Below, piece by piece: positions 26,726-45,683 of a stretch of 51,106 nt of DNA. The DNA comes from a virus (taxonomy: Duplodnaviria; Caudoviricetes): positions 1-51,106 of IMG/VR virus record IMGVR_UViG_3300048599_000152. One strand, written 5' to 3'. Below the pieces are notes generated by a model. The model ran no database searches. It was not told the DNA's origin and saw only the letters and a program-made list of their open reading frames with translations. The position numbers were made by a program, and so were the translations under genes. Within the stretch, counting starts at the first letter, position 1; the number at the start of each line of letters is the position of its first letter.

Positions 26726-27072
26726 GCGCCGGCCCGGAGCCGGTCCATCAGCTCGACGATGGCGCACTTGGCCGCGTCGGCCCCGCTGTCGTCGCCCTCG
26801 CGCTGGCCGAGGTACTGCTTCCCCAGCCAAATCTGCATTGTGGCCGCGGAGCGGCTCTTGCCCAGCGCCGTCTGCATTTGAGCTCGACGCAGGGACACGC
26901 GGCCCTTGCCCTTGCCGCTGTCCCACACGGCGAGGTACTTGGCTTCCTTCAGGCGGTTGCGGACTAGCGTCTCTGAGACGCCGAACCACGCCGCCACATC
27001 GGCGTGCGTGGACTGTAGCTTGGCGAGCTTCTCCAGCTCATCTAGGTCTAGCTCGATGCGCTTGCGGGGCAA
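26722..27072 (-). CDS. terS: Terminase small subunit
   Basis: N-terminal HTH and IWLGKQYLGQ motif; overlaps the terL start. Confidence 0.8.
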   Translation of the reverse strand: MPRKRIELDLDELEKLAKLQSTHADVAAWFGVSETLVRNRLKEAKYLAVWDSGKGKGRVSLRRAQMQTALGKSRSAATMQIWLGKQYLGQREGDDSGADAAKCAIVELMDRLRAGA

Positions 27073-28016: not shown

Positions 28017-29426
28017 TCACGCCCCCGCCTCCGGCTCCAACGGGCGGGCCTCATGCTCAGCCATGAGCAGCTCGACGAGCGGGCCGGCGGCCTTGTGGTG
28101 CAGGCCACCGGGCAGCTCCATGTTCAGCTCCAGCTCCAGCGACGGGCGCAGCTCGGCCGGATCTATGCGCTTGGGCCGGCGGGCGATAGCGTGGATGTTC
28201 GGGCCCTTGGTGTTGACCATCTCGGCCTCCTCGAAGTAGGTGCGCAGCAACGCTAGCAGCGTGTCCGAGGAGTGGAAGTGCTGCATCGTCCAGACGCCCG
28301 ACCTGAAGATGGCTGAGAAGTTGTTGTCGTCGAGGAACTCCAGCAGCCGGCCACTGTTGCCGCGCACCTTCTGGAAGCGCTCGCGGTCGTAGACGAACTG
28401 GAGGTTACGGGTGCCGGTGATGAACGTCCCGCCGTCAGCGCACAGGGCGTTGCACGACCGGATGACGGCGTGCTCGAACTCCAGATTGGTGACGCTGTTC
28501 AGGACCGAGTCCAGCACCACGAAGTCGTACAGGCCGTTGTGGCGCACGTCGCTCTCGATGGCCCTTACCTGAGCGGCGATGCCGGGCGGGTCGAGGTCGC
28601 GGCTGCCGGGCTTGGGCAGGTGCGGCTCGTAGGGGAACACCGTGTAGCCGGCGCGGTTCAGCATCTTCGCGTAGTCACACCGACCGGCCCCGAAGTCGAC
28701 GATCCGGTCGCCCTTGCTGATCCGCGGGATGACGAAGCGCTCGTAGGTGGAGGACTTGCCGGGGCGCGTCGTCTCCTTCTGCACCAGCCGGGGGAGCTGA
28801 CAGTGGAGCTGGTTGTACGCCTTGATGCCGAGCGGGCTGTACTCGTAGACGCCGTAGTCGCCGCCCATCGCGCCCTTGAACTCGGCCACGTCGCCGTTCC
28901 AGATGGTGTAGGTCAGCACCGGCCGGCGCATCAGCTTGGCGGCCACGGCGTAGTCGCTGTTCTCGACCACCACGCCGTCCTCGTCACACACGACGCTGCC
29001 CCAGTCGCCGTAGCGGGCGATGAGAGCGCATATCTCCTTGACCACGGAGGCGTTCAGGTTCCCGGCGTAGACGATCTCGGGGACCGGGCACTCGCTCCAC
29101 GTCTCGGGCTCGCCAGCGGTGACGGTCACCGGGGTCTTGTTCGTCTCGATGCTGTTGTGGAACAGGTTGAAGCGAATCTCGTCCTGCAGGCTGACGCCCT
29201 TGAGGATGAGCGCCGGGACCTCGGTCATGCCGACGGCGTTGGCGGCGCGGGTGCGCTGGTGGCCGGCGGTCAGCACCCCGGCCTCGCCGTTCAGGATGAC
29301 GGGCTTGACCATGCCGAAGCGCCGCAGGCTGCGCTGCAGGCGCTCGAAGGCGTCGTCGCTCAGCCGGCGAGGGTTGTAATCGGCCGGCTTGAGGCGAGCC
29401 GTCGGGTAGGCAGGGTCAAAGGTCAC
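28017..29426 (-). CDS. Tandem ParB-N domains fused to a SAM-dependent methyltransferase
   Basis: PADYNPR...AGHQR ParB motif, a degenerate second ParB unit, IVDFGAG and VVLDSVLNSV. Confidence 0.8.
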   Translation of the reverse strand: MTFDPAYPTARLKPADYNPRRLSDDAFERLQRSLRRFGMVKPVILNGEAGVLTAGHQRTRAANAVGMTEVPALILKGVSLQDEIRFNLFHNSIETNKTPVTVTAGEPETWSECPVPEIVYAGNLNASVVKEICALIARYGDWGSVVCDEDGVVVENSDYAVAAKLMRRPVLTYTIWNGDVAEFKGAMGGDYGVYEYSPLGIKAYNQLHCQLPRLVQKETTRPGKSSTYERFVIPRISKGDRIVDFGAGRCDYAKMLNRAGYTVFPYEPHLPKPGSRDLDPPGIAAQVRAIESDVRHNGLYDFVVLDSVLNSVTNLEFEHAVIRSCNALCADGGTFITGTRNLQFVYDRERFQKVRGNSGRLLEFLDDNNFSAIFRSGVWTMQHFHSSDTLLALLRTYFEEAEMVNTKGPNIHAIARRPKRIDPAELRPSLELELNMELPGGLHHKAAGPLVELLMAEHEARPLEPEAGA

Positions 29427-29549
29427 GGCCGGCCTCGCGTGTCGTCTGGGGCCCCGTGAGTCACCGTGAGGCCCACGCGATCAGCAGGCCGAGGGCGAGG
29501 TCCACGCAGTAGAACAGGCCGACGCCGGCCATGATCCACCAGAAGACGC

Positions 29550-30197
29550 TCACGTACCCACCAGTCCGAGCAGGTGGCCGACGAGGCCGTAGTCCGTGGC
29601 GTTCTCGTCCACGTAGGAGTTGCGAGCCCGCGTCAGCGCGGCCTCTTCCTCCGCGTCCATCGGCACCTTGAAGGAGCCCCAGCACAGGGCGCTGGTGCCG
29701 GCGTCAGCCGCGCCGCCTTCGCGATCCAGCCCCACGCTGTCGGGCAGGTCGAGGTCGTCGGCCAGGGCAAGCTCAATCTCGGCGTCGGTGAAACCGGTTA
29801 GCGACAGGTCGAAGTCGTCGAGGCCGGCCAGCTCGCCCAGCTCCAGCGCCAACAGGGACTCGTCCCAGAGCGCGTCCTGCCCGGAGCGGTTGTCCATGAG
29901 GCGGTACGCCTGCGCCTGGGCAGCGCTCAGGTGGCCGGCTACCGTCACCGGCACCTGTTCCAGACCGAGCCGCTTGGCGGCGGCCAGCCGGGTGTGGCCG
30001 GCGATGACCACGCCCTTGCCGTCCACGACGATGGGCTGCTGCCAGCCGAACTCGCGGATCGACGCGGCCACCTTCTCGATGGCGGTGTCGGGGATGATGC
30101 GCGGGTTGGCGTCGTAGGGGTGCACGTCCGCGATGGGGGTCAGCGTGACGGTCATCTTCTTTTTGTAGGCCGCATCTTCGACCGGGGCGCTCGTCAC
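29550..30197 (-). CDS. ParB/Srx N-terminal domain protein
   Basis: PYDANPR, SIREFGWQQPIVVD, IAGHTRL, YRLMDNR. Confidence 0.88.
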   Translation of the reverse strand: MTSAPVEDAAYKKKMTVTLTPIADVHPYDANPRIIPDTAIEKVAASIREFGWQQPIVVDGKGVVIAGHTRLAAAKRLGLEQVPVTVAGHLSAAQAQAYRLMDNRSGQDALWDESLLALELGELAGLDDFDLSLTGFTDAEIELALADDLDLPDSVGLDREGGAADAGTSALCWGSFKVPMDAEEEAALTRARNSYVDENATDYGLVGHLLGLVGT

Positions 30198-30778
30198 GCC
30201 GTCTCCTTGCCGTTGCCGTGGTAGGTGTAGAAGCCCTTGCCGTGCGCCTCGATGTCGTGGCCGGCGCTGCGCAGTCGGGCGACGCACCGAGTGACCTGTC
30301 GATTCGTGATGGCGTCGGCCAGCCCGATCAGGTGGAGGCGCTCGTCGGGGCGCTGGCGCAGGACCTCGAGGAGGCGCTCGGTGATGGCGGCGTAGTGGCG
30401 GCTGCTGCCCCTTCTGGGGCTGTGGGGCCCCCCGTGGGTGTACGTCGAGCCGCCGCAGGGGTCGCATATCGCCCCGTCGTTGTCGCGCCTCAAACGCGCC
30501 CCACACGCGGTGCAGAATCGCGGGCCCGGTCGACCGGCGATGTGGTACTCCTTGCTGAGCCGGTCGTAGGTGACGGCGTAGCCGGTCGCCCTCATCCGCG
30601 CCAGCTCGGCGCGTATCACGGAGGGCTCCAGCTCAGCCGCCTCGGACAGCTCAGCTAGCGTCATATCTCGCCACTCCAGTGCGTCCGCGATCCGGCGCTG
30701 TCGGGTGATGGCCCCGAAGGCCCCGGTGGGCGTCCCGGAAAGGATGCTGCCGGCGCTACGGGTGTGGTTCGTTGCCAT
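30194..30778 (-). CDS. wHTH - zinc finger - wHTH regulator (candidate late-gene regulator)
   Basis: HTH, CTAC...CDPC, second HTH; heads the morphogenesis run of genes. Confidence 0.6.
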   Translation of the reverse strand: MATNHTRSAGSILSGTPTGAFGAITRQRRIADALEWRDMTLAELSEAAELEPSVIRAELARMRATGYAVTYDRLSKEYHIAGRPGPRFCTACGARLRRDNDGAICDPCGGSTYTHGGPHSPRRGSSRHYAAITERLLEVLRQRPDERLHLIGLADAITNRQVTRCVARLRSAGHDIEAHGKGFYTYHGNGKETA

Positions 30779-30854: not shown

Positions 30855-30934
30855 TAGGTCTGGTCCTGTTGTGTTGTGTCCTGTCCGGTACTGTTGCGCG
30901 TAACGTGACGGTGACGTGACTGTAACGTCACGGC
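30855..30934. repeat. 80-bp iteron-like element, copy 2
   Basis: Colinear and gap-free with 9612-9691. Confidence 0.75.
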
Positions 30935-31018
30935 TACCGGCCCGAGCAGGGAAAAGCAGAGGGCCGGCGTGTGGCCGGCCCCCTGTTGATCGCTTGAACG
31001 ACGTGTCGTGGCGCGGGT

Positions 31019-31920: not shown

Positions 31921-33138
31921 TCAGCCGTTGGCGCCGGTGAAGACGACCAGCCCGTTGCGGTGACGGAGGCCCGTCTCGCCGTTGCCCAGGTCAACCTCGA
32001 CCATGGGGATGCCGCCGTCGTCGCTGTCAGCGGCCTCAGCGGCCGGCTGGGCGGGTGCCGAGAGGGCCGGCGCGGTGCCGGCCCCCGCCTCGTTGATGGC
32101 CGTGATCGCCGTGTTGATGCGGTCCTGCCACCACTTGCTGACCACCTTGGTGTCGACCGTGCCGAGGTCGCTCAGGTCGTAGACCGCGCTGGCCTCGTTG
32201 ATGGCCTCGACCAGCTCGTTGGCGGCTGCCACGCGCTCCTCCTTGGTGGCCTTCGGGCTGCCCATCAGGTCGCGGTAGATGCTCAGGCTCGGCTCGTACT
32301 TGGCGGCCTGCCATGCCTCGGCGTCCCAGCCCATCCGGGCGGCCGTGCGGTACGTCTCGCAGGCTTCGGTCTGGATGGTGTACGTGCCCTTGTCAAGGAC
32401 CGTCAGGCCGCAGGTGTAGACCCGCTTGCCCTTCAGGTTGGTGACCAGCTCGGCTCCGCAGCGCGGGCAGTAGGTCGCGTCGGCGGCCGGCCGCGTGGAC
32501 TCCACCTTCGGGGTCTTGGCGGCCTGCTTGGCGGCCTTCTCCTTGGCGATGCGCTCGGCCTTGATCTTGGCGTTGCCGGCCTTGATGGCCTCGGCGTTGC
32601 GCTCATGGATCGCCCCGATGTGGGCGTTGGCTTCGTCGCGGAGCTTGGCCTGCTCAGCCTTACGGGCTGCCACGTACTCCTGCTCGGTGGCCAGCCTGTC
32701 GGCCTGCAGCCTGTCGAGGCTGGCGTCGACCGCGTTGTCGAGCGCCTCGTCGAGGTCCTCGCTCTCGGTCAGGTCCAGGCCCTCGCTCAGCTCCTCGCGG
32801 TCGGCCTCGAGGAGCGCCTCGCCGGCGGCCTTCATGGCCGTGACCTTGGCCTCGATGTCGGCCTTGATGCTCTCCTCGACCCCGGTCTTGGGGGCGCGGC
32901 GCGGCTTGGAGGCGGTCGCAGGGTCGGCCTTCTCGGCCGTCTCCGTGCCCTCGGGGATGCGGGTCGCCATCAGGGCCTTGGCGGCCTTGGCGTCGACCGT
33001 CAGGCCGTTCGGCTTCAGGTTGACGTACTGCGGGCGGCCGGTCTTGTTGGCCTTGGTCTGGGCGGCGGCGGCTGCGTCGTCGAGGTCGGCGTAGTAGGTG
33101 GTCTTGCTGGTCTTGGCGGCGGCGGTGGTGGTGGTCAC
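31921..33138 (-). CDS. Ala/Lys/Glu-rich early protein with a CxxC motif
   Basis: 405-aa ORF with strong SD, directly behind the TTGACA promoter. Confidence 0.75.
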   Translation of the reverse strand: MTTTTAAAKTSKTTYYADLDDAAAAAQTKANKTGRPQYVNLKPNGLTVDAKAAKALMATRIPEGTETAEKADPATASKPRRAPKTGVEESIKADIEAKVTAMKAAGEALLEADREELSEGLDLTESEDLDEALDNAVDASLDRLQADRLATEQEYVAARKAEQAKLRDEANAHIGAIHERNAEAIKAGNAKIKAERIAKEKAAKQAAKTPKVESTRPAADATYCPRCGAELVTNLKGKRVYTCGLTVLDKGTYTIQTEACETYRTAARMGWDAEAWQAAKYEPSLSIYRDLMGSPKATKEERVAAANELVEAINEASAVYDLSDLGTVDTKVVSKWWQDRINTAITAINEAGAGTAPALSAPAQPAAEAADSDDGGIPMVEVDLGNGETGLRHRNGLVVFTGANG

Positions 33139-33183
33139 GGTGGCTCCTCTCGTTGGGCCGGCGGCCCGTTGCTGGGTGAGTCC

Positions 33184-33213
33184 ACTCTACTCCTACTTGT
33201 GCCAGCTTGTCAA
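33184..33213 (-). promoter_or_regulatory. Leftward sigma70-type early promoter (copy 2)
   Basis: TTGACA-18-TAGAGT on the minus strand. Confidence 0.7.
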
Positions 33214-33478
33214 ATACTTGAGGACCATGCTTCGTTAGGAGGCTGAGCACGTGTCGCCTGCCGAGACGACGTGGCAATGGCCCTCCCGCAGCGGCAGGGC
33301 TCGTGGGATGGGGGTGCCGCTCAGACTCGCTGACCGACAAACAGAAGGCACAGGGCCGACCGGCTTCTGTCGACCTACACGGCCCGGCGCGAGGACGACA
33401 GCGCTAGAAGCGGCGGCTAGTTGCGGGCAGCGGTGCTCAGCCCGATAGACGATCTCGTAGGGGAAAGACAGTCTGCCT

Positions 33479-33507
33479 TTCGCGCACGCTCAGGCTCGTG
33501 ATAGCGT
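33479..33507 (+). promoter_or_regulatory. Candidate cassette promoter (Pc-like)
   Basis: TTCGCG-17-TAGCGT about 55 bp upstream of the first GTTRRRY. Confidence 0.35.
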
Positions 33508-33540
33508 CATATACAGAAGGCGGTTGTCTGTGTCGATGAC

Positions 33541-33571
33541 AAACGCAGACTGTCTAATAGTAGTTAGGCCC
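33541..33571 (+). other. attI-like recombination site
   Basis: GTCTAA-TAGTA-GTTAGGC simple site; GTTAGGCCC is complementary to the R'' of cassette 1 (GGGCCTAAC, 34027-34035). Confidence 0.6.
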
Positions 33572-33607
33572 ACTGGTGAGCGGTAGGCGACGTCCCGGCG
33601 AAGGAGG

Positions 33608-34000
33608 GTGCACATAGTGAGCGGCACGACCCTCTGGGAGTACGCGGTTCTCGCGGCCATTGCCTTCGTCCTGCCTCTCGCGCTCCTCGTCTGCGCCGGT
33701 TTCGCTTCCGGCGGCGTCTCGCCCCGACTGCGCTCCGTCGCGCTCGTGCTGCTCGCAGCTGGCGTCCTCGTGCTCCTGCGTCAGGTGCTGCGCACCGGCA
33801 TCGGCGACCTCATGCCGCTGTTTGCGATCCCGGCGCTGATCGCCGCCGCCGTCCTGTACCCGCTCACGGCCCTGACGCTCGTGCGTTCGGCGTCCGGCCG
33901 CCACGGGCGCCTCACCTCCGCGTCCGCCGCTGTCATCCTCCTCGCAGCGTCGGCGCTCGTGCAGTTCGCTGGGCCGTGGATGCTGACGTCGGGGCAGTGA
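33608..34000 (+). CDS. Cassette 1: 4-TM membrane protein
   Basis: AAGGAGG SD, four hydrophobic segments. Confidence 0.8.
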   Translation: MHIVSGTTLWEYAVLAAIAFVLPLALLVCAGFASGGVSPRLRSVALVLLAAGVLVLLRQVLRTGIGDLMPLFAIPALIAAAVLYPLTALTLVRSASGRHGRLTSASAAVILLAASALVQFAGPWMLTSGQ

Positions 34001-34028
34001 TGTCACACTGCCACGACACCCGCACGGG

Positions 34029-34118
34029 GCCTAACAAGCGCGTCAACCTGACGCGGCCAACGGTTTCTGTAATAACTTGGATCCGCAGCCCGCGCAGGTT
34101 ACGCGCACGACGTTGGAC
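34029..34118 (+). other. attC site 1
   Basis: GCCTAAC AAGCG CGTCAACC TGACGCGG...CCGCGCA GGTTACG CGCACGAC GTTGGAC. Confidence 0.92.
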
Positions 34119-34136
34119 AGACCGGGTCGAAGTTGG

Positions 34137-35483
34137 ATGGGGGGTCCAGTGAAGCAGGATGGTGATGCCGCCGCAGTTGATGCATCGCGGTTGAGCCTCG
34201 TCGCCCTCGCCGCCGCTGTCGGGGCCGCTCTGCTGACTGTCCCATTCGCGGCTGCCCTCATCTCGTCCATCCGTCTCTGGGACTGGAACTTCAGCCGCTT
34301 CTCCGACGGCCTCGTCGGCCTCGGCATGCTGGCGTGGCTGACGCTGACCGCAGCGGCCCTCGTCCTCGGCATCGTGCAGCTACTGCGGCGCGGCCATCGG
34401 AGGCGCATGCCTGTCGCCGCCGCCGCCCTCGGCGCCGCATCTCTGCTCGTCATCGTCCCGCTGGCGATCGCCGCCAATCGAAGCCCCACCTACCGGATCG
34501 AGGCGGGTCCCCCATTGGCGGCGAGCCCCGGCCAGTTCGTCGCCGCCCTGGAGGTGCACGGCTTCCTCGTCACGAGCGCCGACGGTGGAGCCACCTGGAC
34601 CGAAGATGTCCTGGGCTCCTCGCCCAGCCTCCTGATGCCTTGGAGCGTCGCCTTCACTGATCCGCAGCGAGGCTGGGTCATGGGCAGGGACCCAGGCGCG
34701 GTGCTTACTACTACCGATGGAGGCGCGACCTGGGCGTCGTCCAAGGTGCGCGGCATGCGTCTTCTCAACGCTCTCGCCAGCAGCGACGCCCGGCATGTGT
34801 GGGTCGCGGGTCGCCGCACCGAGGACCTGCCGGGCGTCGCTGCCAGCGCCGACGGCGGGGCCACCTGGACGGCGCACGCCGTGCCCGGTCGCGGGGTCCT
34901 CAACTCGATCGCGTTCCCGGACTCCCGCCATGGCTGGGGCGTAGGCCTGGACACCGGCGCATCCTGGCACGGGTACATCGTCGCCACCACGGACGGCGGT
35001 CGGCACTGGCGGACGCAGTTCCGCACAGATTCCAGCAAGATGAGCCTCGGCCGCGTCACCTTCGCAGACGCACGCCACGGGTGGGTCGCCGGCACGCTCT
35101 CGAAGCCTTCGGGCTCCGGCGGCGACGCCGGAGTCATCTTGGCGACGGACGACGGCGGGGCGACGTGGGAGGTCCAGTACGAAGCCCGGCTTCCTCTCTA
35201 CCCCGTGACGTGCGCGGATGCGATGCACGCTTGGGCCGCCGGGCACGACGGCCTCATCATCGCCACGAGCGACGGCGGCAAGTCGTGGCGCGAGCAGCCC
35301 TCGGGCACGAGCCAGCCGCTCCGGGCGATATCCTTCAGCGATTCCCGGCACGGCTGGATCCTCGCTGGGCGCGGGGCCCTCTTGGCGACCGCGGACGGCG
35401 GCGCCAGCTGGACCAAGGTGAAGATGGGGCCGGGTACCTTCGTGATCGACGTCGAAGCCTCGTCGACAGCAGCAGCTCGGTAG
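34137..35483 (+). CDS. Cassette 2: 3-TM anchor plus BNR/Asp-box (YCF48-like) beta-propeller
   Basis: Seven (T/S)xDGGxxW Asp-box repeats; start at 34137 or 34149, after attC1. Confidence 0.88.
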   Translation: MGGPVKQDGDAAAVDASRLSLVALAAAVGAALLTVPFAAALISSIRLWDWNFSRFSDGLVGLGMLAWLTLTAAALVLGIVQLLRRGHRRRMPVAAAALGAASLLVIVPLAIAANRSPTYRIEAGPPLAASPGQFVAALEVHGFLVTSADGGATWTEDVLGSSPSLLMPWSVAFTDPQRGWVMGRDPGAVLTTTDGGATWASSKVRGMRLLNALASSDARHVWVAGRRTEDLPGVAASADGGATWTAHAVPGRGVLNSIAFPDSRHGWGVGLDTGASWHGYIVATTDGGRHWRTQFRTDSSKMSLGRVTFADARHGWVAGTLSKPSGSGGDAGVILATDDGGATWEVQYEARLPLYPVTCADAMHAWAAGHDGLIIATSDGGKSWREQPSGTSQPLRAISFSDSRHGWILAGRGALLATADGGASWTKVKMGPGTFVIDVEASSTAAAR

Positions 35484-35521
35484 CTTCGGGCCGGAGGCCG
35501 ATGGGTGACCGCGAGAGGGCT

Positions 35522-35608
35522 GTCCAACAAGCGCATGGAGCAGAACGCCACACGGTCTGCCGTGAACCGGCAGGTCAGCCGCGTCTGCTCATGCGCGGTG
35601 CGTTGGAC
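35522..35608 (+). other. attC site 2
   Basis: GTCCAAC AAGCG CATGGAGC AGAACGC...GCGTCT GCTCATG CGCGGTGC GTTGGAC. Confidence 0.92.
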
Positions 35609-35677
35609 CGACGGTTGCCCAGCGGCGACGGGAGTCAGGGCACGAGGCGTGCGCGCTGCTAGAGGCCTCCGGAGGCG

Positions 35678-36295
35678 ATGAAGGGAAGCATGGACGAAGA
35701 ACCCACCGGCAACAGCGAGAAGAGCGCGAGGGAGAGGCGCTCGGCTCCCGGGCGCACCATCCTCGAGTACGTGGTCCTCGCGGTCGTCGCGATCGCCGTC
35801 GCACTCCTCATCCAGGCGTTCCTCGTCAAGCCGTACCGCATCCCCTCACCGTCCATGGAGGACACGCTCCTGGTCGGGGACCGCGTGCTCGCCGACCGCA
35901 TCTCGTGGCGCTTCTCCGATCCACAGCGCGGCGACATCGTCGTCTTCCATCCGCCCGGACCGGGGCCTGTGCTCATCAAGCGCATCGTGGGGCTGCCCGG
36001 CGAGACCATCTCGCTGCGGAACGGCGAGGTGTATGTCAACGGCAAGATGTTGGAAGAGCCCTATGTGCGCCGGGTGGATGGCAGCCCCGAGCCCACGGAA
36101 CCGTTCACCACGGGACTCCCTTGGGCGCTCCAGCAGCCTTTTACAGTGCCGGCAGGCAGCTACTTCATGATGGGCGACAACCGCACCGACAGCGGCGACA
36201 GCCGCGACTTCGGGCCCGTCGCGCGCGACCAGCTTGTAGGTCGGGCCTTCGCTCGCTATTGGCCGGTCGGGCGCATCGGCGGTCTGGGCGGATAA
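35678..36295 (+). CDS. lepB: Cassette 3: signal peptidase I (S26)
   Basis: IPSPSMEDTL (Ser), RGDIVVF, IKRIVGLPG (Lys), GDNR..S.DSR.FG. Confidence 0.95.
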   Translation: MKGSMDEEPTGNSEKSARERRSAPGRTILEYVVLAVVAIAVALLIQAFLVKPYRIPSPSMEDTLLVGDRVLADRISWRFSDPQRGDIVVFHPPGPGPVLIKRIVGLPGETISLRNGEVYVNGKMLEEPYVRRVDGSPEPTEPFTTGLPWALQQPFTVPAGSYFMMGDNRTDSGDSRDFGPVARDQLVGRAFARYWPVGRIGGLGG

Positions 36296-36344
36296 TCATG
36301 CTACGACACCGGCGGGGCACAGGCGGGGGGCCGCAGTTGTCGCG

Positions 36345-36434
36345 GTCCAAAAAGCGGATCAAGCTGGCTCGCAGCAGCGCCGGCGGCCTCGCGGGAGGCC
36401 AACGCGCTCGCAGCTTATCCGCGGTGCGTTAGCC
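36345..36434 (+). other. attC site 3 (R'' AAC changed to AAA)
   Basis: GTCCAAA AAGCG GATCAAGC...GCTTATC CGCGGTGC GTTAGCC. Confidence 0.88.
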
Positions 36435-36456
36435 GCACCGGTCCGGGAGGCCCGCC

Positions 36457-36765
36457 ATGACCGATAGGCATGCAGCCATCGTCCCCGTTGACTCGGCTCG
36501 GCGGCATGTTTCGACCTGGCAACTGACTGCCGCAGCAGTCTGCCTCATCGCAGGCTACTGGCTCATGGCGTTCGCTACCGACAGGGCGTGGCTGTACCTG
36601 CCGAGCGTTGTCCTGCAGGCTCTTGCCGTCGGCCTGCCCGTCCGGGCGCTCACCAGGGACCAGAAGAGGTGGCCTTGGACCGCGATCCTCGTCGCGGAGG
36701 GCGTGGTGGCACTACTCACTATCATCGACCTGTTCTTCGCGGCGCTGTTCTCGTGGGGCGGCTAG
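36457..36765 (+). CDS. Cassette 4: 3-TM membrane protein
   Basis: GGAGG SD, three hydrophobic segments, stop codon inside the R'' box. Confidence 0.8.
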   Translation: MTDRHAAIVPVDSARRHVSTWQLTAAAVCLIAGYWLMAFATDRAWLYLPSVVLQALAVGLPVRALTRDQKRWPWTAILVAEGVVALLTIIDLFFAALFSWGG

Positions 36766-36790
36766 CATGCGGATCAAGCTGGCTCGCCCG
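36760..36790 (+). other. attC site 4, left half only (degenerate)
   Basis: GGCTAGC ATGCG GATCAAGC TGGCTCGC; 19 nt identical to attC3; no matching L'/R' found. Confidence 0.75.
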
Positions 36791-37030
36791 AGGGCCGTCT
36801 GACCGGTTACCGTCGTCAGGGGCAGGGGCAGGTGTCGCCTGCCGTATTGACCTCGCGTCGCTCAAGCACCTGTCGGAGACCTTCAAGAATGCTCCGAAGG
36901 CTGGCAGCTTGTTCTACAACCCTGGCGACGCCGAAGGCTGAAGTTCGCGCCCATCGATGACGATAGCTGTTAGGCGCAGGTAGGCGCAGGTATACTCCTG
37001 ACGACCACCCCTGCCCCCAATGGAGCCCAC

Positions 37031-37285
37031 ATGTCGCGACGCAAGACCATACCGGGTCCTGCCGGTCAGCCAATTGAAGTCGAACCCATTCCGTTTCGGA
37101 GCGGTCAGGAGAACTGGAACGACTACTTCCTTGAGGACGGCACGGTCTTGCGTATGAAGACCGTCGTGACCGAGGTTCAGCGGGCTGTGGATGCCTACGA
37201 TCAGGACGGGAACCCGATGTACATCGTCAGGTCGGCGAACGTGCTCAACGTTGACGCTCCCGACAAGCTGCGGAGGCCGGAATGA
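37031..37285 (+). CDS. Hypothetical protein upstream of hicBA
   Basis: ENWNDYFLEDGTVLRMK; ATGA-coupled to the next gene; TATACT at 36991. Confidence 0.75.
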   Translation: MSRRKTIPGPAGQPIEVEPIPFRSGQENWNDYFLEDGTVLRMKTVVTEVQRAVDAYDQDGNPMYIVRSANVLNVDAPDKLRRPE

Positions 37286-37767
37286 CGCCCGAACTCATGG
37301 CAAAGGATCCATGCCTAGGACAGCTTCTCGTCTTCGACCAGGGGTCCGGCAAGGCGCATGCCCGCGAGGACTCCAGCGAGGCTAGGTGCAGGCTCGTCAG
37401 GCAGGAAGAGCGGCGTGCCGCGCCGCACTATCGCGGCATGTGGGGCGAGGTCCTGTCCTCAAGCGGGGAGGTTTTGGGTGGCATGGCACCAGTCGACGTG
37501 AGAGAGGAGCTGCTACGTCGGTACGCCGAACTAGCGGCCAGCTTGGCAGAGCCGGGCGTGCGCCAGCTTGAAGACAGCGACGAGTGGTATGTGGACCTGA
37601 TAGGTCTTCCGGGAGCGTGGGCGACGGGCGGTACTCCGTGGCTGGCGCTCGAAGACTTCCGGTCTGTCGTCCGTGAATGGGTCGAACTGAAGCTTGAGCA
37701 CGGTGATCACGACATCCCGTCGCTCGGCGGCATCGACGTCTGCCTTCTCTCCCAGCCTGCCGTTTGA
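37282..37767 (+). CDS. hicB: HicB-like antitoxin with N-terminal extension
   Basis: C-terminal W.VDL.GLPGAWATG.T...AL......W...IP HicB-type fold; adjacent to hicA. Confidence 0.7.
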   Translation: MTPELMAKDPCLGQLLVFDQGSGKAHAREDSSEARCRLVRQEERRAAPHYRGMWGEVLSSSGEVLGGMAPVDVREELLRRYAELAASLAEPGVRQLEDSDEWYVDLIGLPGAWATGGTPWLALEDFRSVVREWVELKLEHGDHDIPSLGGIDVCLLSQPAV

Positions 37768-37773
37768 CCCTCG

Positions 37774-38001
37774 GTGACAGCCCCGGGATCAATCTCGCGG
37801 CGTGACCTCGTGCGTGTTCTGAGAGGTTTCGGCTACGAGGGTCCGTTATCCGGTGGGAAGCACCAGTTCATGCGACGCGACCTGAGGACCGTCCGCATCC
37901 CGAATCCCCATCACGGCGATATCTCGTGGAGCCTCGCCAAAGAAGTCCTGCGCCAGGCTGGGATAGACGTGGACGCTGCCCTGAGATTTCTGGGCAGCTA
38001 G
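37774..38001 (+). CDS. hicA: HicA mRNA interferase toxin
   Basis: LR.FGYEGP.SGGKHQFM...VRIPNPH.GDI...L..VLRQAGI. Confidence 0.9.
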   Translation: MTAPGSISRRDLVRVLRGFGYEGPLSGGKHQFMRRDLRTVRIPNPHHGDISWSLAKEVLRQAGIDVDAALRFLGS

Positions 38002-38070
38002 CTCGCGGGAGGGCAGCCTCGGCGCGAGCCTTCCTTCCCTGACGTCAGAGGGCCGTGATAGCCTTCGCTC

Positions 38071-39711
38071 GTGTCCGAGAACGTGCTGTACTACGGCGAT
38101 AACCTCGATGTCCTGCGACGCCACGTCGCGGACGAGTCGGTTGACCTCGTCTACCTGGACCCGCCGTTCAACAGCAACGCCACGTACAACGTTCTCTTCG
38201 CCGAACACCACGGCGAGCGGGCCGCGAGCCAGATCAAGGCGTTCGAGGACACGTGGACGTGGGACTACACGGCCGAGTGGAGCTACCGGCAGACGGTGGA
38301 GGCCGGCGGGCAGGTGTCCAAGGCGCTGCAGGCTTTCCACACGCTGCTGGGGCCGTCGAACATGCTCGCCTACCTCGCCATGATGGCCCCGCGCCTTGTG
38401 GAGCTGCGCCGGGTGCTCAAGGACACCGGCAGCATCTACCTCCACTGTGACCCGACGGCGAGCCACTACCTCAAGCTCCTGATGGACGCCGTGTATGGGC
38501 CCGAGCACTTCCGGGGTGAAATCTGCTGGCAGCGGTCGACGGCCAAGGGCCACGCGTTCACGCGCTACCCCGCCGCTCAGGACTCGCTGCTTTACTATTC
38601 GAAGAGCGAGACGCCGACGTGGCACACGCAGCACCTACCCCACCGGCCTGAGTACATCGAGAGCCACTATCGGAACATCGAGTCAGAGACTGGCCGGCGC
38701 TACACGCTCGGCGACTGCCTGAATCCGAACCATGATCGGCCGAATCTCACCTATGAGTGGAACGGCCTGACGCGTGTCTGGCGATGGACGCCCGAGAAGA
38801 TGCAGGCGCTCCATGACGCCGGCCGGCTTGTCTACACGAAGTCGGGAATGCCGCGCTACAAGCGCTATCTGGACGAGATGCCCGGCACGGCGGTCACCAC
38901 CGTCTGGACGGATATCCCGCCCCTCAACTCTCAGGCGGCTGAGCGGCTTGGTTACCCGACGCAGAAGCCCGAAGCCCTCCTCGAGCGCATCATCGCGACG
39001 AGCAGCAACCCCGGAGACGTAGTGCTTGACCCCTTCTGCGGCTGCGGAACCGCCGTGTCGGCCTCTCAGAACCTCGACCGCCGCTGGGTCGGCATCGACA
39101 TCACGCATCTCGCCGTGACCCTCATCAAGTCGCGGCTGCTGGACGCTTTCAAGCTGGAGGCAGGCAAGGACTACAAGGTGATCGGCGAGCCGGTGTCCCA
39201 GCCCGATGCCGAGGCGCTGGCGGCGTCGGACCCGTGGCAGTTCCAGTGGTGGGCCCTCGGCCTCGTAGGTGCCCGGCCTGTCGATCAGAAGAAGGGTGCT
39301 GACCACGGCATCGACGGTCGCCTGTACTTTCACGACGAGCCGGGAGCGAACACGAAGCACATCGTCCTGTCCGTGAAGGCGGGCCAGAACGTAGGCGTGG
39401 GCGCGGTGCGCGACCTCGGCCACGTCGTGAAGCGAGAGGGCGCGGCCATCGGCGTCCTCCTGACCATGCGGGAGCCCACCAAGCCAATGAGGACCGAGGC
39501 CGCCGAGGAAGGCTTCTACGACTCGCCTTGGGGCGGCAGCTACCCCCGTCTGCAGATCCTCACCGTGGCCGAGCTGCTGGACGGCAAGCGCATCGACTAC
39601 CCCAACGTCGAGGGCATGGACCGAACCTTCCGCAAGGCACCACGGGCAGGGGCAAAGGCGGCCGACGTGCTGACCCTCGACCTCGACGGCGGGGTGCCGG
39701 TCGAGGACTAG
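38071..39711 (+). CDS. N6/N4 DNA methyltransferase fused to an Mrr-like endonuclease domain
   Basis: YLDPPFNS, YPTQKP, VLDPFCGCGT; C-terminal ADHGIDG...SVKAG. Confidence 0.9.
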   Translation: MSENVLYYGDNLDVLRRHVADESVDLVYLDPPFNSNATYNVLFAEHHGERAASQIKAFEDTWTWDYTAEWSYRQTVEAGGQVSKALQAFHTLLGPSNMLAYLAMMAPRLVELRRVLKDTGSIYLHCDPTASHYLKLLMDAVYGPEHFRGEICWQRSTAKGHAFTRYPAAQDSLLYYSKSETPTWHTQHLPHRPEYIESHYRNIESETGRRYTLGDCLNPNHDRPNLTYEWNGLTRVWRWTPEKMQALHDAGRLVYTKSGMPRYKRYLDEMPGTAVTTVWTDIPPLNSQAAERLGYPTQKPEALLERIIATSSNPGDVVLDPFCGCGTAVSASQNLDRRWVGIDITHLAVTLIKSRLLDAFKLEAGKDYKVIGEPVSQPDAEALAASDPWQFQWWALGLVGARPVDQKKGADHGIDGRLYFHDEPGANTKHIVLSVKAGQNVGVGAVRDLGHVVKREGAAIGVLLTMREPTKPMRTEAAEEGFYDSPWGGSYPRLQILTVAELLDGKRIDYPNVEGMDRTFRKAPRAGAKAADVLTLDLDGGVPVED

Positions 39712-39759: not shown

Positions 39760-41133
39760 ATGGCAAGCGGGCACATTCGCAGAGCACGGCGGGACGGCAA
39801 AGTTATCAAGGACTGCTGGGACGTGCAGGCCGAGCTGGGGGCCTACGTCGATGCCCAGGGCGAGCGCCAGCGCCCCCGCAAGACCGCGAGGGTCCACGGG
39901 CTGCGCGAGGACGCGGAGCGCGTACTGACGCAGCTCAAGCACGAGCTGGACACGGGCGTGGTCATCGACCCGAAGAAGCTCACGGTGGCCGACCTGCTCG
40001 ACCGCTGGCTGGACGACTACGCCCGGCAGGATGGCAAGCTCTCCCCCACAACCCTCCGCGGCTACGAGGACATCGTGCGGATCCACCTGAAGCCCCGGCT
40101 GGGCAAGGTGTCGCTGGCCAAGCTCCAGCCGATGCAGATTCAGGCGTACTACACCCACGCCCTGAAGGCCGGCAAGCAGAGCCGCGTCAAGGAGAAGCCG
40201 GCGGTGCCGGCGCGGCCGGCCAAGGGCAGGCGAAAGGCGAAGCCCGCCAAGCCAGCGGTCAAGAAACCCGCGCCCACTGGCCTGTCGCCGGCCACCGTCA
40301 TGCAGCACCACACAGTCCTGCACGAAGCGCTCCAGTACGCCGTGGGCCTGCGGCTGCGCAAGGACAACCCGGCGTCCGCAACGGAGCCCCCGTCTGTGCC
40401 CCTCCAGCGCCGGCAGAGGCGGCGGCCACGCGCCCTGCCACCTACGGGCCTCGCTCACGTGATCGCGGCCTCTGAGGGGACGGACATGTACCTGCCTGTC
40501 GTCCTCGCGGCCACCACCGGGATGCGGCGCTCCGAGCTGTGCGGGCTCAGGTGGCGTGACGTGGACCTCAAGGCCAAGCGGGTGTTCGTCGACGAGCCGC
40601 TCGTCCACGACGGGACGCGGGCCCTCGTCCACAAGGAGCCCAAGTCGGCGGCCGGCCGGCGGGCCATCCCCATCGGGGCGCTGACGGTCCGGGCCCTGAA
40701 GGAGCAGCGCGCTGATCAGGGACGCCGGCGCAAGGCGCTGCGCGGCAAGTACCGGGACGAGGGGTACGTCATCGACGAGTACGCCGGCGGGCCCGTGCGC
40801 CCCGACACGCTGTCCTCGCGCTGGCGTGCCCTGGCGATCCGCGCCGGCGTGGAAGGCTACCGGCTCCACGACCTGCGCCACTCCTACGCGACGGAAATGA
40901 TGGAACACGAGCACCCGAAGCTCGTCAGCGAGCGCCTCGGGCACAGCACCGTGGCCTTCACGATGCAGACCTACCAGCACGTCGGAGAGGACGCTCACCG
41001 AGCAGCGGCGGACGCTTTCGACGCCCGCCTCGCAGACGCCGATCCCGCAGATTGGGCAGACAATGGGCAGACAAACGCCCCCGTCCAACGGCTGCGACGG
41101 GGGCGTTCATCGGGCAAAAGTCCTGCAAAATGA
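39760..41133 (+). CDS. int: Prophage tyrosine integrase
   Basis: GMRRSE, LHDLRH, LGH, TYQH; stop codon abuts the att core. Confidence 0.95.
   Translation: MASGHIRRARRDGKVIKDCWDVQAELGAYVDAQGERQRPRKTARVHGLREDAERVLTQLKHELDTGVVIDPKKLTVADLLDRWLDDYARQDGKLSPTTLRGYEDIVRIHLKPRLGKVSLAKLQPMQIQAYYTHALKAGKQSRVKEKPAVPARPAKGRRKAKPAKPAVKKPAPTGLSPATVMQHHTVLHEALQYAVGLRLRKDNPASATEPPSVPLQRRQRRRPRALPPTGLAHVIAASEGTDMYLPVVLAATTGMRRSELCGLRWRDVDLKAKRVFVDEPLVHDGTRALVHKEPKSAAGRRAIPIGALTVRALKEQRADQGRRRKALRGKYRDEGYVIDEYAGGPVRPDTLSSRWRALAIRAGVEGYRLHDLRHSYATEMMEHEHPKLVSERLGHSTVAFTMQTYQHVGEDAHRAAADAFDARLADADPADWADNGQTNAPVQRLRRGRSSGKSPAK
41052..41073 (+). repeat. Prophage arm-type repeat
   Basis: Identical to 1449-1470. 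Confidence 0.8.
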
Positions 41134-41134
41134 A

Positions 41135-41180
41135 TGGTAGCGGCGGTAGGACTCGAACCTACGACACGCGGATTATGATT
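41135..41180 (-). repeat. att core (prophage / satellite junction)
   Basis: 46 bp identical to the tRNA-Met 3' end (50077-50122). Confidence 0.95.
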
Positions 41181-41296
41181 GCGACCCAGCCCGTGACGCG
41201 CTCTGACGGGTCATGCCGGAATCGCGGTCTGTGCAGGGACTTTGCGAGTCCGACTGCCGACTCCGTGTCGGCTCCTGTCGCCCTCTGACGGACGGC

Positions 41297-41316
41297 TGCC
41301 TAGCAAACGCCTAGCA
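41297..41316 (+). repeat. Satellite arm-type repeat GCCTAGCA x2
   Basis: Same motif at 49937-49994 and inverted at 45684-45703. Confidence 0.8.
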
Positions 41317-41376
41317 GTAAGGTAGGCTTGCGGCTGTAGCAGCCCGGCAGCGCGCGAGATCAAGAGGGGTTGGCAT

Positions 41377-42144
41377 ATGAGCGATGGGCCCACTTCCAAC
41401 GGTAGCGTGAGCGAATCCCAGCCAAAGGCCGAGGCGGTGCGGCCTGCGTCACCGGCGCCCGCACGGCCCAAGTGGGAGACTGAGGCCCGAGAAAGGGTCA
41501 AGAACGCGGTCAAGAAGTTCAACAGGCCCTTGGCCGACCTGTTGACGCGAGACGCGAATGAGGGCGACACGCGCTTGGCCGTCACTGACTTCCTTTGCGA
41601 GGGTCTCGGATACGACAAGTACATCGACCTGACGACCGAGTACGCGGTGAGAGGCGAATTCGCTGACTACGGCGTGCGCATCGACAAGGAAATCGTGGCG
41701 TTCATCGAGGTCAAGCGGATTGCCACCAAGCTCAACGGCAAGCACCTTCGCCAGGTACAGACGTACGCGGTGAACGAGGGCGTCGAATGGATGATCCTGA
41801 CGAATGGCGCGGAGTGGCAGGCGTACCACCTCACGGGAGGGCTGCCAGTTGTCACGGAACTGGCCTTGTCCGTGAATCTCCTCGGCACCGAGACGGCCTC
41901 TCAGAAGGCCAAGGTGCTGTTCTACTTGACCCGTGAGTCATTCAAGAAGCGCCAGATCGACGAACTATGGAAGGCCCGCCGAGCCAGTTCCCCCGAAAGC
42001 CTCGCCAAGATCCTGCGGTCTGAATCCGTCCTGGAGGAGATCCGCCGGGAGCTGTGGCGACAGACACACCAACGGCTTGAGTCCGAGGAGTTGCTCAGGC
42101 TTCTTGAGGAAACGGTACTTCGACCGGAGTGTCTCGAAAAGTAG
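41377..42144 (+). CDS. Type I restriction HsdR N-terminal-like nuclease (putative defence)
   Basis: NEGDTR, LGYD, ADY, FIEVK, Q...YA, ILTNG..W. Confidence 0.8.
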   Translation: MSDGPTSNGSVSESQPKAEAVRPASPAPARPKWETEARERVKNAVKKFNRPLADLLTRDANEGDTRLAVTDFLCEGLGYDKYIDLTTEYAVRGEFADYGVRIDKEIVAFIEVKRIATKLNGKHLRQVQTYAVNEGVEWMILTNGAEWQAYHLTGGLPVVTELALSVNLLGTETASQKAKVLFYLTRESFKKRQIDELWKARRASSPESLAKILRSESVLEEIRRELWRQTHQRLESEELLRLLEETVLRPECLEK

Positions 42145-42299
42145 AGGCCCGCGAAAGACTGCCGACGGCGACGAGTGCCCCCGGCTCGGACAGAGGAAGA
42201 GCCCGGGAGCGGCCGACAGGGCTCCCGAGCTCTCTCATGCAGGTGAACTCCGCCGGCGCCGGACTCCGGCCTTGCCGCCCCTGAACCCTTCAAGCAGTG

Positions 42300-42551
42300 C
42301 TAGCCACCGTCTTCCGTGTCCTTCGGCCGCGGCTTCTGCCAAGGGCGCCGCGGACAGGTGGCAGCACTCTCGAGCATGGCCTCGCCCATGGCTGCCATCT
42401 TCGCGTCCCAGGCATCCCGCTCGGCCTGCATCTCGGCCTTGTGCTGCGCGTAGACCTCGGGCGCGATGTGCGTCGCCAGCGCGACGCTCATCTCGGTGTA
42501 GGTGAGCAGGAGTCGGTCGGCCTCCTGCCTCTGTTCGTCAGTCAGCCTCAC
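42300..42551 (-). CDS. Hypothetical protein
   Basis: MRLTDEQRQ... ORF at the end of the satellite operon. Confidence 0.45.
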   Translation of the reverse strand: MRLTDEQRQEADRLLLTYTEMSVALATHIAPEVYAQHKAEMQAERDAWDAKMAAMGEAMLESAATCPRRPWQKPRPKDTEDGG

Positions 42552-42615
42552 ATGGCACCCCTTCCAGAGCCGCGGCCGGCACGGCCGGGATCGTTTGGTC
42601 CGGCGCCGGACTTCC

Positions 42616-42873
42616 CTAGGCGCTCTCGCCAACTGCCAGCCGAGCCGCCCGAATCCGGGCATCGGCCGCCGCTACCGCCTTGACGAACGGAGCTTGAGCG
42701 TTCTGAACGTGGTACTGCTCTTGCAGCAGGGCCGTCCGCTCGGGCTCAGTGCCGGCGTGCGCGGCCTTGCTGCCCAGCTCGGCGTACTGCTCTTGCAGCT
42801 CACCGAGCTTCGCCGCGGGAGCTTCCCGCGATGCCTGTGCGGCCTTCAGTTCTGCGAGTGCGGCTTCCATCAT
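42616..42873 (-). CDS. Coiled-coil hypothetical protein
   Basis: ATGA-coupled to the upstream ORF. Confidence 0.55.
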   Translation of the reverse strand: MMEAALAELKAAQASREAPAAKLGELQEQYAELGSKAAHAGTEPERTALLQEQYHVQNAQAPFVKAVAAADARIRAARLAVGESA

Positions 42874-43085
42874 TCGCCATTCTCGGCGGGCTCGACGTGT
42901 GCCGCGTACTTCTCGGGAGTGATGCCCATGCGCTTCGCGGCTTCGAGTTGCAGCGGCGTGAGAGCTTTCGCGGCCTTCGTCGCGCGGTACGCCTCGGGAG
43001 TGACGCCGATGCGGCTGGCCAGGTACTCCTCTTCGGTGAGGTTGAGGGTTTCGCACACCTTCTGTTCGGCTGGGGTGAGTCCCAT
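42870..43085 (-). CDS. 71-aa protein of repeated scaffold-like helix-turn-helix motifs
   Basis: LNLTEEEY / IGVTPEAY / MGITPEKY repeats; AAGGAG SD. Confidence 0.7.
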   Translation of the reverse strand: MGLTPAEQKVCETLNLTEEEYLASRIGVTPEAYRATKAAKALTPLQLEAAKRMGITPEKYAAHVEPAENGE

Positions 43086-43089
43086 GGTC

Positions 43090-43638
43090 CTATTCTCCTT
43101 GCCGCTTCGCGGCGCTCGTGGGGGTGTCGACGTGGCAGCCGCAGAGGGCTTCGGCTAGGACGGACAGCACTGCCGCATCCGGCGCCGGGGCATTGCGGAG
43201 TGCGGCGATCTGCCCCTCGTGGTACTGGACGCGCTGAGTGAACGGCATCGCCTCCTCTTCGGCGGCAGTGAGCGCCGCACGCAGCTCCTGCATTCTCGGC
43301 GTGTTGCGATCCGGCTCGGGCTCAACACCCGCCGCCCCGTCTGCCTTGCGCGTGAAGTAGTCACGCAGGCGAGCTGAGATGGAGCCCTCCTCCCGGTCGC
43401 GTGCCTCGCGGGCCGCCTCGACGGCCGCCAGCGGCCCGGCAGCGGCCTCACGTGCCTTGCGGAGCGGCTCGCCCTCGAGCGCGTCCGCGAGCTCAGCGGC
43501 CTCCGCCTGCGTCAGGGCGGCGGCAAGGACGCTGAGCGCCTGCTCGCGGGACGCCTCAGTCAGGCGGCGCATGAGCTCCATTCCGGAGACTGCCATCACC
43601 CGTGGGTAGGTGGCCTGGTCGAACAGTTCTTGATTCAT
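43090..43638 (-). CDS. Alpha-helical hypothetical protein
   Basis: MNQELFDQ... with GAGG SD. Confidence 0.6.
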   Translation of the reverse strand: MNQELFDQATYPRVMAVSGMELMRRLTEASREQALSVLAAALTQAEAAELADALEGEPLRKAREAAAGPLAAVEAAREARDREEGSISARLRDYFTRKADGAAGVEPEPDRNTPRMQELRAALTAAEEEAMPFTQRVQYHEGQIAALRNAPAPDAAVLSVLAEALCGCHVDTPTSAAKRQGE

Positions 43639-43667
43639 CGTTCCTCGTTTCGTCCGTGGGTCCATGG

Positions 43668-44366
43668 TCAGAGGTAGTCGATGACGCCACTTGTGTAGGC
43701 GCCTTCGTCGATCAGGACGGCGAGCGCGGCGGCGCACACAAGGTCGTCGTGGTGGCCGGCGCGGGCGTTCCACTGCGGGGTCGCGTTGTCGTTCACGGAC
43801 AGCTCGAACGTCTTCAGCTCGTCAACGAGGTCGTCGGCGGCAGCGGAGCGCGGCCACTCGAGGCGCCCGAAGCCGATGAGCGACTGCAGCCTAGAGACCA
43901 AGTGCGACTTGCTGACGGTGCCGTCCTTGGCTCCCCGGTGGACGTTGCAGCCGCTGCCGGCGGTGAACATCACGCCCGTAAGGTGGCCCTCTTCGATGCC
44001 GGCGGACTCGCGCAGGAAGTCGACGACCGGCAGGCCGCAGCCGGTGGCGTCGACCATGACGTACACGCGCTCGCGAGCCCGCGGCTCCTGAGGCGGAAGC
44101 ATGCCGTCCGCGAACATGTAGCCGCCGCATCGGTAGTCGAACTCGGCCTGCTCAGAGGAGAGGCGGGCCACCACGAAGCTGTAGACGGCGGCCAGGCGTT
44201 CGGCCACCTGCGGGTACGAGGTCTGCAGGGCCAGGCGTTCGATGTGGTGGATTCGGTGCCGATCACGAGGGAGCTGCTCGGCGACGACCACGGCCGAAGG
44301 GTCGGCCCTCTGGCCGACGTCCACGCCGATGGTGATGGTGGTGGTCGGGACGGCTACGGCTTTCAC
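43668..44366 (-). CDS. Terminase large subunit, stand-alone RNase H-like nuclease domain
   Basis: IGVDVGQRADPSA, VDATG.G, HDDLV.A.ALA; GTGA overlap with the ATPase gene. Confidence 0.85.
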   Translation of the reverse strand: MKAVAVPTTTITIGVDVGQRADPSAVVVAEQLPRDRHRIHHIERLALQTSYPQVAERLAAVYSFVVARLSSEQAEFDYRCGGYMFADGMLPPQEPRARERVYVMVDATGCGLPVVDFLRESAGIEEGHLTGVMFTAGSGCNVHRGAKDGTVSKSHLVSRLQSLIGFGRLEWPRSAAADDLVDELKTFELSVNDNATPQWNARAGHHDDLVCAAALAVLIDEGAYTSGVIDYL

Positions 44367-45606: not shown

Positions 45607-45683
45607 GCTCAGACCCCGCGCAGCGGACTAGGAGTCCGCGTGTCGGCATGAAACAGGGCGGTATGCAGGGACTTCGGGAGGCG

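Follow-up and report, generated by a model that had tools for sequence, protein, structure and literature searches.

We describe an integron-type gene-cassette array carried by a prophage in the complete IMG/VR virus record IMGVR_UViG_3300048599_000152, a viral contig of 51,106 bases with ~68% G+C and a CheckV completeness of 100%, the whole of which was analysed and is referred to below as the window. Four co-oriented cassettes with a single open reading frame (ORF) each occupy 33563–36793 on the plus strand, between the last phage gene and the phage integrase gene, and the stretch 33433–36793 is, in our view, probably the truncated, integrase-less remnant of a chromosomal-type integron of same-strand ('inverted-integrase') layout, lying in the accessory region of the prophage. 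In block order this remnant would comprise a deleted integrase gene (ΔintI, the last ~9 codons), an attI-like region and four cassettes, the first three complete and the last with an attC site cut after L'' (ΔattC4). Phage-borne attC clusters in which the integron integrase is missing (CALINs) are an already published kind, and what distinguishes the present one is the temperate, probably actinobacterial system, the intI/attI scar and the metagenome-common attC family; the feature that appears to be new is an intI 3'-end vestige together with an attI-like stretch upstream of phage-borne cassettes.

Cassette array and attC sites

Each ORF is followed by an attC site, which is complete and 87–90 nucleotides (nt) long in the first three cassettes and a half-site in the fourth.

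33563–34113, plus strand: cassette 1, membrane protein ORF (33608 or 33617 to 34000) and attC1 (34029–34118)
34112–35603, plus strand: cassette 2, membrane-anchored BNR/Asp-box (Ycf48-like) propeller ORF (34149–35483) and attC2 (35522–35608)
35602–36429, plus strand: cassette 3, type I signal peptidase (S26) ORF (35678 or 35690 to 36295) and attC3 (36345–36434)
36428–36793, plus strand: cassette 4, small membrane protein ORF (36457–36765) and truncated attC4 (36758–~36793)

The attC sites were assessed by pattern scans, folding and a covariance model. A strict scan (RYYYAAC and GTTRRRY 50–150 nt apart, plus an L''/L' stem with a 1-nt bulge) returned two sites in the window, 34029–34118 and 35522–35608, both on the plus strand, and none other in the window, whilst 100 dinucleotide shuffles of the window, scanned on both strands, yielded no site. 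Allowing one mismatch per R box added attC3 (36345–36434), with one other match in 31 unrelated loci. The R boxes of attC1 and attC2 are exact and those of attC3 carry one mismatch each (GTCCAAA, GTTAGCC), and the spacer geometry is identical in all three sites (2 nt and 5 nt). The bottom strands fold to the canonical hairpin, in which one G bulges from the 3' ('') arm (z-scores -3.9, -3.7 and -2.6); an initial annotation, made from the sequence alone, had noted an extra base of L'' relative to L' in three sites. The half-site that the same annotation had put at 36760 exists, with its coordinates now corrected to 36758–~36793; it consists of R'' and L'' only, with no L'/R' partner downstream, and attC4 has the 19-mer GCGGATCAAGCTGGCTCGC in common with attC3. 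The one exact copy of this 19-mer found elsewhere, in an unrelated low-G+C viral contig, is taken as chance.

The cassettes also carry the mark of once-circular molecules opened between G and TT, namely a start that is reverse-complementary to the R'' region of the same cassette, at 9 of 9, 9 of 9 and 8 of 9 bases in cassettes 1–3 and, as read from the sequence, at 8 of 9 in cassette 4 (GTTAGCCGC against GCGGCTAGC at 36758–36766), a correspondence which the initial annotation had claimed for all four.

A pattern taken from attC1 and attC3 (AAGCGNNTCAANC...GNTTANNCGCNNNNCGTT) matched at least 132 metagenome stretches, and many contigs held two to four co-oriented matches. Among the matches listed, the first 78 loci contained 90 distinct sites, in which 255 of 270 pattern-free stem positions were complementary and the bases outside the pattern were mostly YAAC upstream and RR downstream, whilst all loci together contained 146 distinct sites, or 125 after removal of near-duplicates. 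From 63 of those 125 metagenome sites, and with the window sites left out, a covariance model, R1, was derived. R1 recovered attC1 with 80.3 bits (E 7e-23), attC3 with 67.9 bits (E 5e-19) and attC2 with 49.5 bits (E 2.7e-13), the last although the search pattern misses it; the half-site attC4 reached no more than 11.7 bits (E 0.17), against 17.5 bits for the highest-scoring remaining place in the window and 17.3 bits for the reverse strand of attC1. On 30 loci the model gave 102 hits in same-strand arrays (seven in L068, six each in L103 and L081, and five each in L056, L105 and L108). As controls, all three published attC sites of Tetrasphaera phage TJE1 (242–295, 1014–1077 and 1460–1521) were found at 15–30 bits, and one of two cassette ends of a class 1 integron was found, that after aadA5 (17.8 bits), the one after dfrA17 being missed. 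Rfam holds no attC family, and a scan of the region against it gave nothing relevant.

By these sequence criteria the palindromes are confirmed as genuine attC-type sites, far beyond chance. The integron-type array described by the initial annotation, which had itself proposed the covariance-model and bottom-strand folding checks, is borne out, and every feature was found where it had been placed. Their high R1 scores, set against the low ones of the TJE1 and class 1 sites, further assign the window sites to an attC family of its own, which is high in G+C and known from environmental samples. The family is common in metagenome contigs, in records labelled sediment and in groundwater and sludge runs, whilst its pattern was found in no other IMG/VR contig, and a blastn search of PLSDB plasmids and INPHARED phages with the array returned the lepB coding sequence only and no attC site. 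As 2.4 kb hold three complete sites while the 51-kb record has no IntI, the array is a CALIN (at least two attC sites, no nearby IntI).

All four cassette products are predicted to be envelope or secretion proteins. The cassette 2 ORF matches Pfam PSII_BNR (9.6e-24) plus BNR and encodes an N-terminal membrane segment followed by a propeller with seven Asp-box-like repeats (counted by eye); its likely start is GTG 34149, since the TTG at 34077 falls within attC1. The cassette 3 ORF encodes a full-length S26 signal peptidase I (Pfam Peptidase_S26, 180 bits over the whole profile). A Shine-Dalgarno-like motif can be read upstream of each cassette ORF. A consensus scan found no cassette promoter, the sole promoter-like site (33213–33184) lying on the minus strand and facing the phage gene at 31921–33138. 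The cassette ORFs have a G+C content of 0.65–0.72 and a third-codon-position G+C content (GC3) of 0.80–0.88, the phage core genes a GC3 of 0.88–0.96.

The initial annotation had reasoned that cassettes of a true array should be found independently elsewhere, and judging from contig alignments this holds for cassette 1, which occurs in other arrays. In metagenome contig L096 a homologue (72% over 127 amino acids, 74% over 441 nt) has an attC site on either side, the downstream one being of attC3 type and not of attC1 type. In sequencing run X1 a 502-nt contig equals 33563–34062 with two differences, its alignment starting exactly at the cassette boundary, and a second contig of 299 nt matches attC1 exactly over 79 nt (34036–34114), its other 220 nt remaining unaligned to the window. 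Pieces ~93% identical to cassette 2 are present in run X5, as are attC3-like sites within other sequence, and attC3-type sites 88–93% identical occur in many metagenome contigs. Partial homologues were the only ones found elsewhere for cassettes 2 and 3, and none was found for cassette 4. The run contigs align to the window in part only, and the largest share of the words of window 32300–37600 in any sequencing run is ≤8%. Run X1 also shows a backward joint from 35606 to 34029, with only 32 nt on its shorter side.

Candidate intI and attI vestiges and related integrons

The three integrases of the window score 22–42 bits against the IntI model TIGR02249 (cut-off 265), that of the prophage carrying the array (element B, below) scoring 37.5, and no IntI over the cut-off was found in the record, a 51-kb viral contig the whole length of which was covered by this search; the array is therefore not a complete integron. 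The initial annotation was thus right that none of the three is an IntI. Its further statement that there is no integron integrase stands for a functional enzyme and should probably be amended for the gene, as the 3' end of intI and an attI-like region appear to survive as vestiges directly upstream of cassette 1.

33433–33458, plus strand: candidate intI 3'-end vestige, ~9 codons, reading ...AVLSPIDDLV...
33459–33562, plus strand: attI-like region up to the first GTT crossover box (GTTAGGC at 33563)

The candidate vestige is 92% identical over 26 nt to positions 314–289 of metagenome contig L051, a stretch that codes for the IntI tail GVRSPIDDLV (TIGR02249 positions 278–315, E 1.6e-12), and this tail was the only one recovered by tblastn of the C-terminal half of IntI against 78 loci. 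In a five-way alignment 33433–33458 falls on the last IntI codons of contig L114 and of the Actinomycetota genomes G640, G610 and G701, and the downstream skeleton up to the GTT box, including a T(C/A)TAAT hexamer that precedes the box by a few bases, is common to the window, L114 and G640. The stretch 33468–33572, with the first GTT box at its end, shows 74% identity to L114 802–906, which lies just after an ORF fragment best matching the TIGR02249 C-terminus (positions 284–314, E 1.6e-8) and upstream of three co-oriented attC sites. In the G640 genome the motif skeleton occurs once, 117–170 nt 3' of the stop of a full-length intI (481-bit IntI). Contig pieces ~90% identical to 33433–33569 are present in three coded runs, and the attI pattern was found in no other IMG/VR contig. 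attI sites are specific to their integrase, with which the absence of this skeleton from the other 20 IntI-bearing genomes agrees.

A possible 'WQW' motif upstream of the vestige was dropped for want of profile support. Contig L051 shows a further feature at 289–500, where a 3' fragment of an S26 peptidase gene, 82% identical at the nucleotide level to the end of cassette 3, abuts the IntI 3'-end fragment on the opposite strand; two pieces of sequence also present in the window thus meet there at a rearrangement joint.

IntI over the family cut-off was found in 23 of 401 sampled Actinomycetota genomes (~6%; G482 and G543, which are unpublished, are included in this tally and counted only) and in 35 of 401 at E <= 1e-30. 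A sample of Acidimicrobiia genomes gave one of 401, and the IntI contig of that genome, G275, had no R1 hits. In G701 (contig L190), G610 (L191) and G640 (L192) all R1 attC hits (13, 4 and 5 respectively) lie downstream of intI on the same strand, IntI ends in ...GVRSPMDAL or ...GVQSPIDGL, and a GTTA box follows 160–190 nt later. We found no survey of complete integrons in Actinomycetota/Actinobacteriota genomes or metagenome-assembled genomes in the literature.

A separate observation concerns the Actinomycetota genome G479, in which contig L174 (9869–15321) carries three attC sites belonging to the window's family (87, 43 and 56 bits); they share one orientation and follow SnoaL-like, DUF6414 and DUF4062 genes, with hsdM, a RES-domain gene and a BrnT/BrnA-like pair as neighbours; another contig of the same genome, L175, holds an IntI C-terminal pseudogene with in-frame stops.

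Prophage setting and host

Three direct-repeat copies of the 54-nt 3' end of a tRNA-Met gene (1286–1339, 41134–41187 and 50076–50129) are each preceded by a plus-strand tyrosine integrase gene (2–1180, 39760–41133 and 48624–49952), and therefore three elements are integrated in tandem at one tRNA-Met gene, each with its own integrase. The middle one, element B (1340–41187, ~39.8 kb), is a full temperate siphovirus-like prophage that has phage hallmark genes and a tyrosine integrase and is flanked by att repeats at the tRNA gene. The initial annotation had placed the array inside a prophage, and the att repeats, hallmark genes and integrase bear this out. The features of the element and its borders, the phage genes assigned by Pfam and PHROGs, are as follows.

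1286–1339: left att copy, left boundary of element B, direct repeat of the tRNA-Met 3' end
1340–33138, minus strand: replication, lysis, tail, head and packaging genes of element B (Pfam, PHROGs)
7216–7887, minus strand: exonuclease
9782–10630, minus strand: CHAP lysin
13175–15940, minus strand: TIG-domain tail protein
19274–19780, minus strand: tail terminator
21222–22073, minus strand: capsid
22927–23979, minus strand: minor capsid
23979–25457, minus strand: SPP1-type portal
25457–26989, minus strand: large terminase
28017–30506, minus strand: ParB-methyltransferases
31921–33138, minus strand: last phage gene before the array
37031–37285, plus strand: accessory ORF between array and integrase
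37282–37767, plus strand: UPF0150/HicB-like gene between array and integrase (Pfam/PHROGs)
38071–39711, plus strand: single ORF, N6/N4 DNA methylase fused to an Mrr-type restriction nuclease domain (Pfam/PHROGs)
39760–41133, plus strand: phage-type tyrosine integrase of element B, not IntI (Pfam Phage_integrase, Phage_int_SAM_3; PHROG 1)
41134–41187: right att copy (direct-repeat family D6, identity to the reference copy 89%), bounding element B on the right
50077–50153, minus strand: tRNA-Met gene, holding the third repeat copy (50076–50129)

Model R1 found no attC site in the accessory genes at 37031–39711. The closest relatives of the terminase are Streptomyces phage terminases (~50% identical), and relatives of the element B integrase (28–51% identity) were found at 24 genome loci, 23 of them titled Actinomycetota and 17 of these belonging to Acidimicrobiia lineages; no attC sites were found near those 24 loci. 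The high-G+C host of this prophage is probably an actinobacterium, given the Streptomyces-phage-like terminase and the Actinomycetota relatives of the integrase. No close host genome was found, the tRNA flank matching other genomes only inside tRNAs, at ≤97% identity.

Several other features of the window and its phage were recorded. The small third element (41188–50075, ~8.9 kb) may be a phage satellite or a decayed phage; it contains an HSDR_N-like nuclease gene (41377–42144), terminase-large-subunit-like fragments across two adjacent ORFs (43668–45217) and an AAA_25/primase-like gene (46067–47083). Within the prophage an 86-nt direct repeat, 78% identical and rich in GTGACG/GTCACG, occurs at 9612–9697 and 30855–30940, both intergenic, and may be a regulatory or origin-like element. 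In the coded sludge run X7 two 151-nt contigs match the phage gene at 31921–33138 (window 32688–33087) with 0–1 differences, so that the phage or a very close relative may be present there, at a depth of ~2 and with no contig bridging to the array.

Origin and meaning of the array

Both ends of the block are, on the reading we favour, breakpoints within integron parts, the left one within intI and the right one within attC4, and because of this the acquisition or erosion would most likely have proceeded by ordinary illegitimate or homologous recombination. Either the phage captured a segment of a host integron, or a whole phage-borne integron decayed in place. Several observations weigh against the remnant interpretation. 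The 26-nt vestige is too short for profile hits, of which there were none, and taken alone could be chance; the attI assignment is suggested by likeness to L114, G640 and short run contigs together with position, and the skeleton is present in only one of 21 IntI-bearing Actinomycetota genomes, being absent from the other 20. The arrays of G701, G610 and G640 have no cassette proteins in common with the window, nor are their attC sites similar to its own at the blastn level. Of the genomes sampled, none of 401 Acidimicrobiia and only one of 401 Actinomycetota (G479) contained the attC-family pattern, for which reason the main hosts of the family may lie outside the host phylum of the phage. 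Finally, searches for relatives of the prophage with which to compare the accessory slot, in IMG/VR via the ORF at 31921–33138 or the terminase and by megablast against phages, returned none.

The initial annotation had proposed that the slot was filled by a host IntI acting in trans, and cassette circles, each with one cassette or with several, could in principle have entered the phage at a secondary or attG-type site, the array being built there. A helper is plausible, with IntI over the cut-off in 23 of 401 Actinomycetota genomes. The logic of integrons makes the attI-proximal cassette the newest; cassette 1 is that cassette and is nearly identical in run X1, where the contig with an exact attC1 continues into 220 nt unaligned to the window. 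Loot et al. in 2024 reportedly described cassette integration at non-classical genomic sites. The left junction, however, is no bare GTT, since ~100 nt with homology to the sequence downstream of intI in G640 and L114, and the candidate intI vestige, stand before it, and the right end is a truncated attC, whereas IntI recombination would leave a complete hybrid site. Since the left end appears to lie inside intI and the right end inside attC4, capture or decay as a unit fits better than cassette-by-cassette loading in trans, which we regard as unlikely. The near-identical cassette 1 elsewhere is a hint, no more, of later exchange, and such exchange by a host IntI at the retained attI-like site is possible.

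The array might alternatively come from another organism and have been joined to the phage contig during metagenome assembly, and attC repeats are known to break or mis-join short-read assemblies, as noted by Néron et al. 2022 (PMC9024848). In the four runs compared there is zero cover at 33185–33361 and 36902–37432, which leaves both phage–array junctions neither confirmed nor contradicted independently. Against a chimera, both junctions cross several hundred bases of unique, unrepeated sequence in one contig, the G+C content and GC3 of the cassettes are near those of the phage genes, and the array sits between structural/early genes and integrase, where temperate phages usually carry accessory genes; we consider this explanation very improbable. 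Least credible of all, and effectively refuted by the L-stem compensation, the R1 scores and the co-oriented metagenome arrays, is that the palindromes have nothing to do with integrons and are phage terminators or intergenic repeats of the repetitive extragenic palindromic (REP) kind that resemble attC. They are indeed intergenic hairpins, each 3' of an ORF, and attC sites are thought to hold weak terminators according to Qi et al. 2023 (PMC9892861). Yet the R1 score is strand-specific (80 bits on the top strand vs 17 on the other), members of the family form arrays of up to seven copies in metagenome contigs, the L stem shows compensatory changes, the linearised-circle signature is present and there is no T-tract terminator at the attC sites.

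Integron parts are a rare phage cargo but a published one, with 17 phage CALINs on record, and integron integrases are less rare in the sampled Actinomycetota genomes (23 of 401) than the initial annotation had it. Qi et al. 2023 (PMC9892861) report three complete integrons, one In0 and 17 CALINs from 10,705 phage genomes and recombination of phage attC sites by IntI1, and Néron et al. 2022 (PMC9024848) report RefSeq Actinobacteria without complete integrons, with a single In0 and a small number of CALINs, and treat CALINs as integrons that have degraded. Nearest to the present array is the TJE1 CALIN (Tetrasphaera phage, NC_019930), likewise made up of co-oriented single-ORF cassettes with attC sites and no IntI in an actinobacterial phage. 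TJE1 is virulent, whereas element B is temperate, sits integrated as a prophage and has an arm-type integrase of its own; attC sites of TJE1 are 54–64 nt long (15–30 bits) and those of the window 87–90 nt (50–80 bits), a different attC family; and the candidate intI vestige and attI-like region of the window have no counterpart mentioned for TJE1 in the passages of PMC9892861 consulted.

Prophage-borne chromosomal-integron segments of Gammaproteobacteria resemble the window in having cassettes inside a prophage, with attI there and an attI-like region here; the case M16-3 keeps an intact IntI plus a CALIN, whereas the window would keep ~9 intI codons in same-strand layout. That layout is described for Treponema (PMC3607928) and, as 'inverted integrase integron', in PMC13323075; intI is there transcribed towards attI and the cassettes, as the vestige, attI-like region and cassettes of the window all lie on the plus strand and as in G701, G610 and G640, but the window has no functional intI. 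Chromosomal CALINs are, like the window array, attC clusters without IntI, whereas that of the window is on a mobile prophage and appears still to show the deletion point in intI. In bacterial chromosomes CALINs were reportedly described as degraded integrons by Cury et al. in 2016.

To our knowledge, Actinomycetota have long been thought to lack integrons, or nearly so. The 23 of 401 genomes with IntI and the same-strand arrays in all three of those examined suggest that RefSeq-based surveys underestimate the integron reservoir of the phylum. Without IntI the array in the prophage would be static, and its four genes, with their own ribosome-binding sites, would serve as lysogenic-conversion cargo, whilst the retained attI-like and attC sites mean that a compatible host IntI could still excise or add cassettes. 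More tentatively, and on balance doubtfully, the prophage might be a working shuttle, an integrase-free attI/attC platform whose cassettes are swapped with a chromosomal array via a compatible same-strand IntI in trans and transduced between hosts, a helper being plausible because ~6% of the sampled Actinomycetota genomes have IntI. If true, the phage would bring an integron platform devoid of integrase and operating in trans to a phylum in which integrons were long believed to be lacking. The apparent intI/attI vestiges make the history readable, pointing to an integron segment that was cut rather than built on the phage, and a temperate phage with a docking site and cassettes would be one route for cassette movement without plasmids or transposons.

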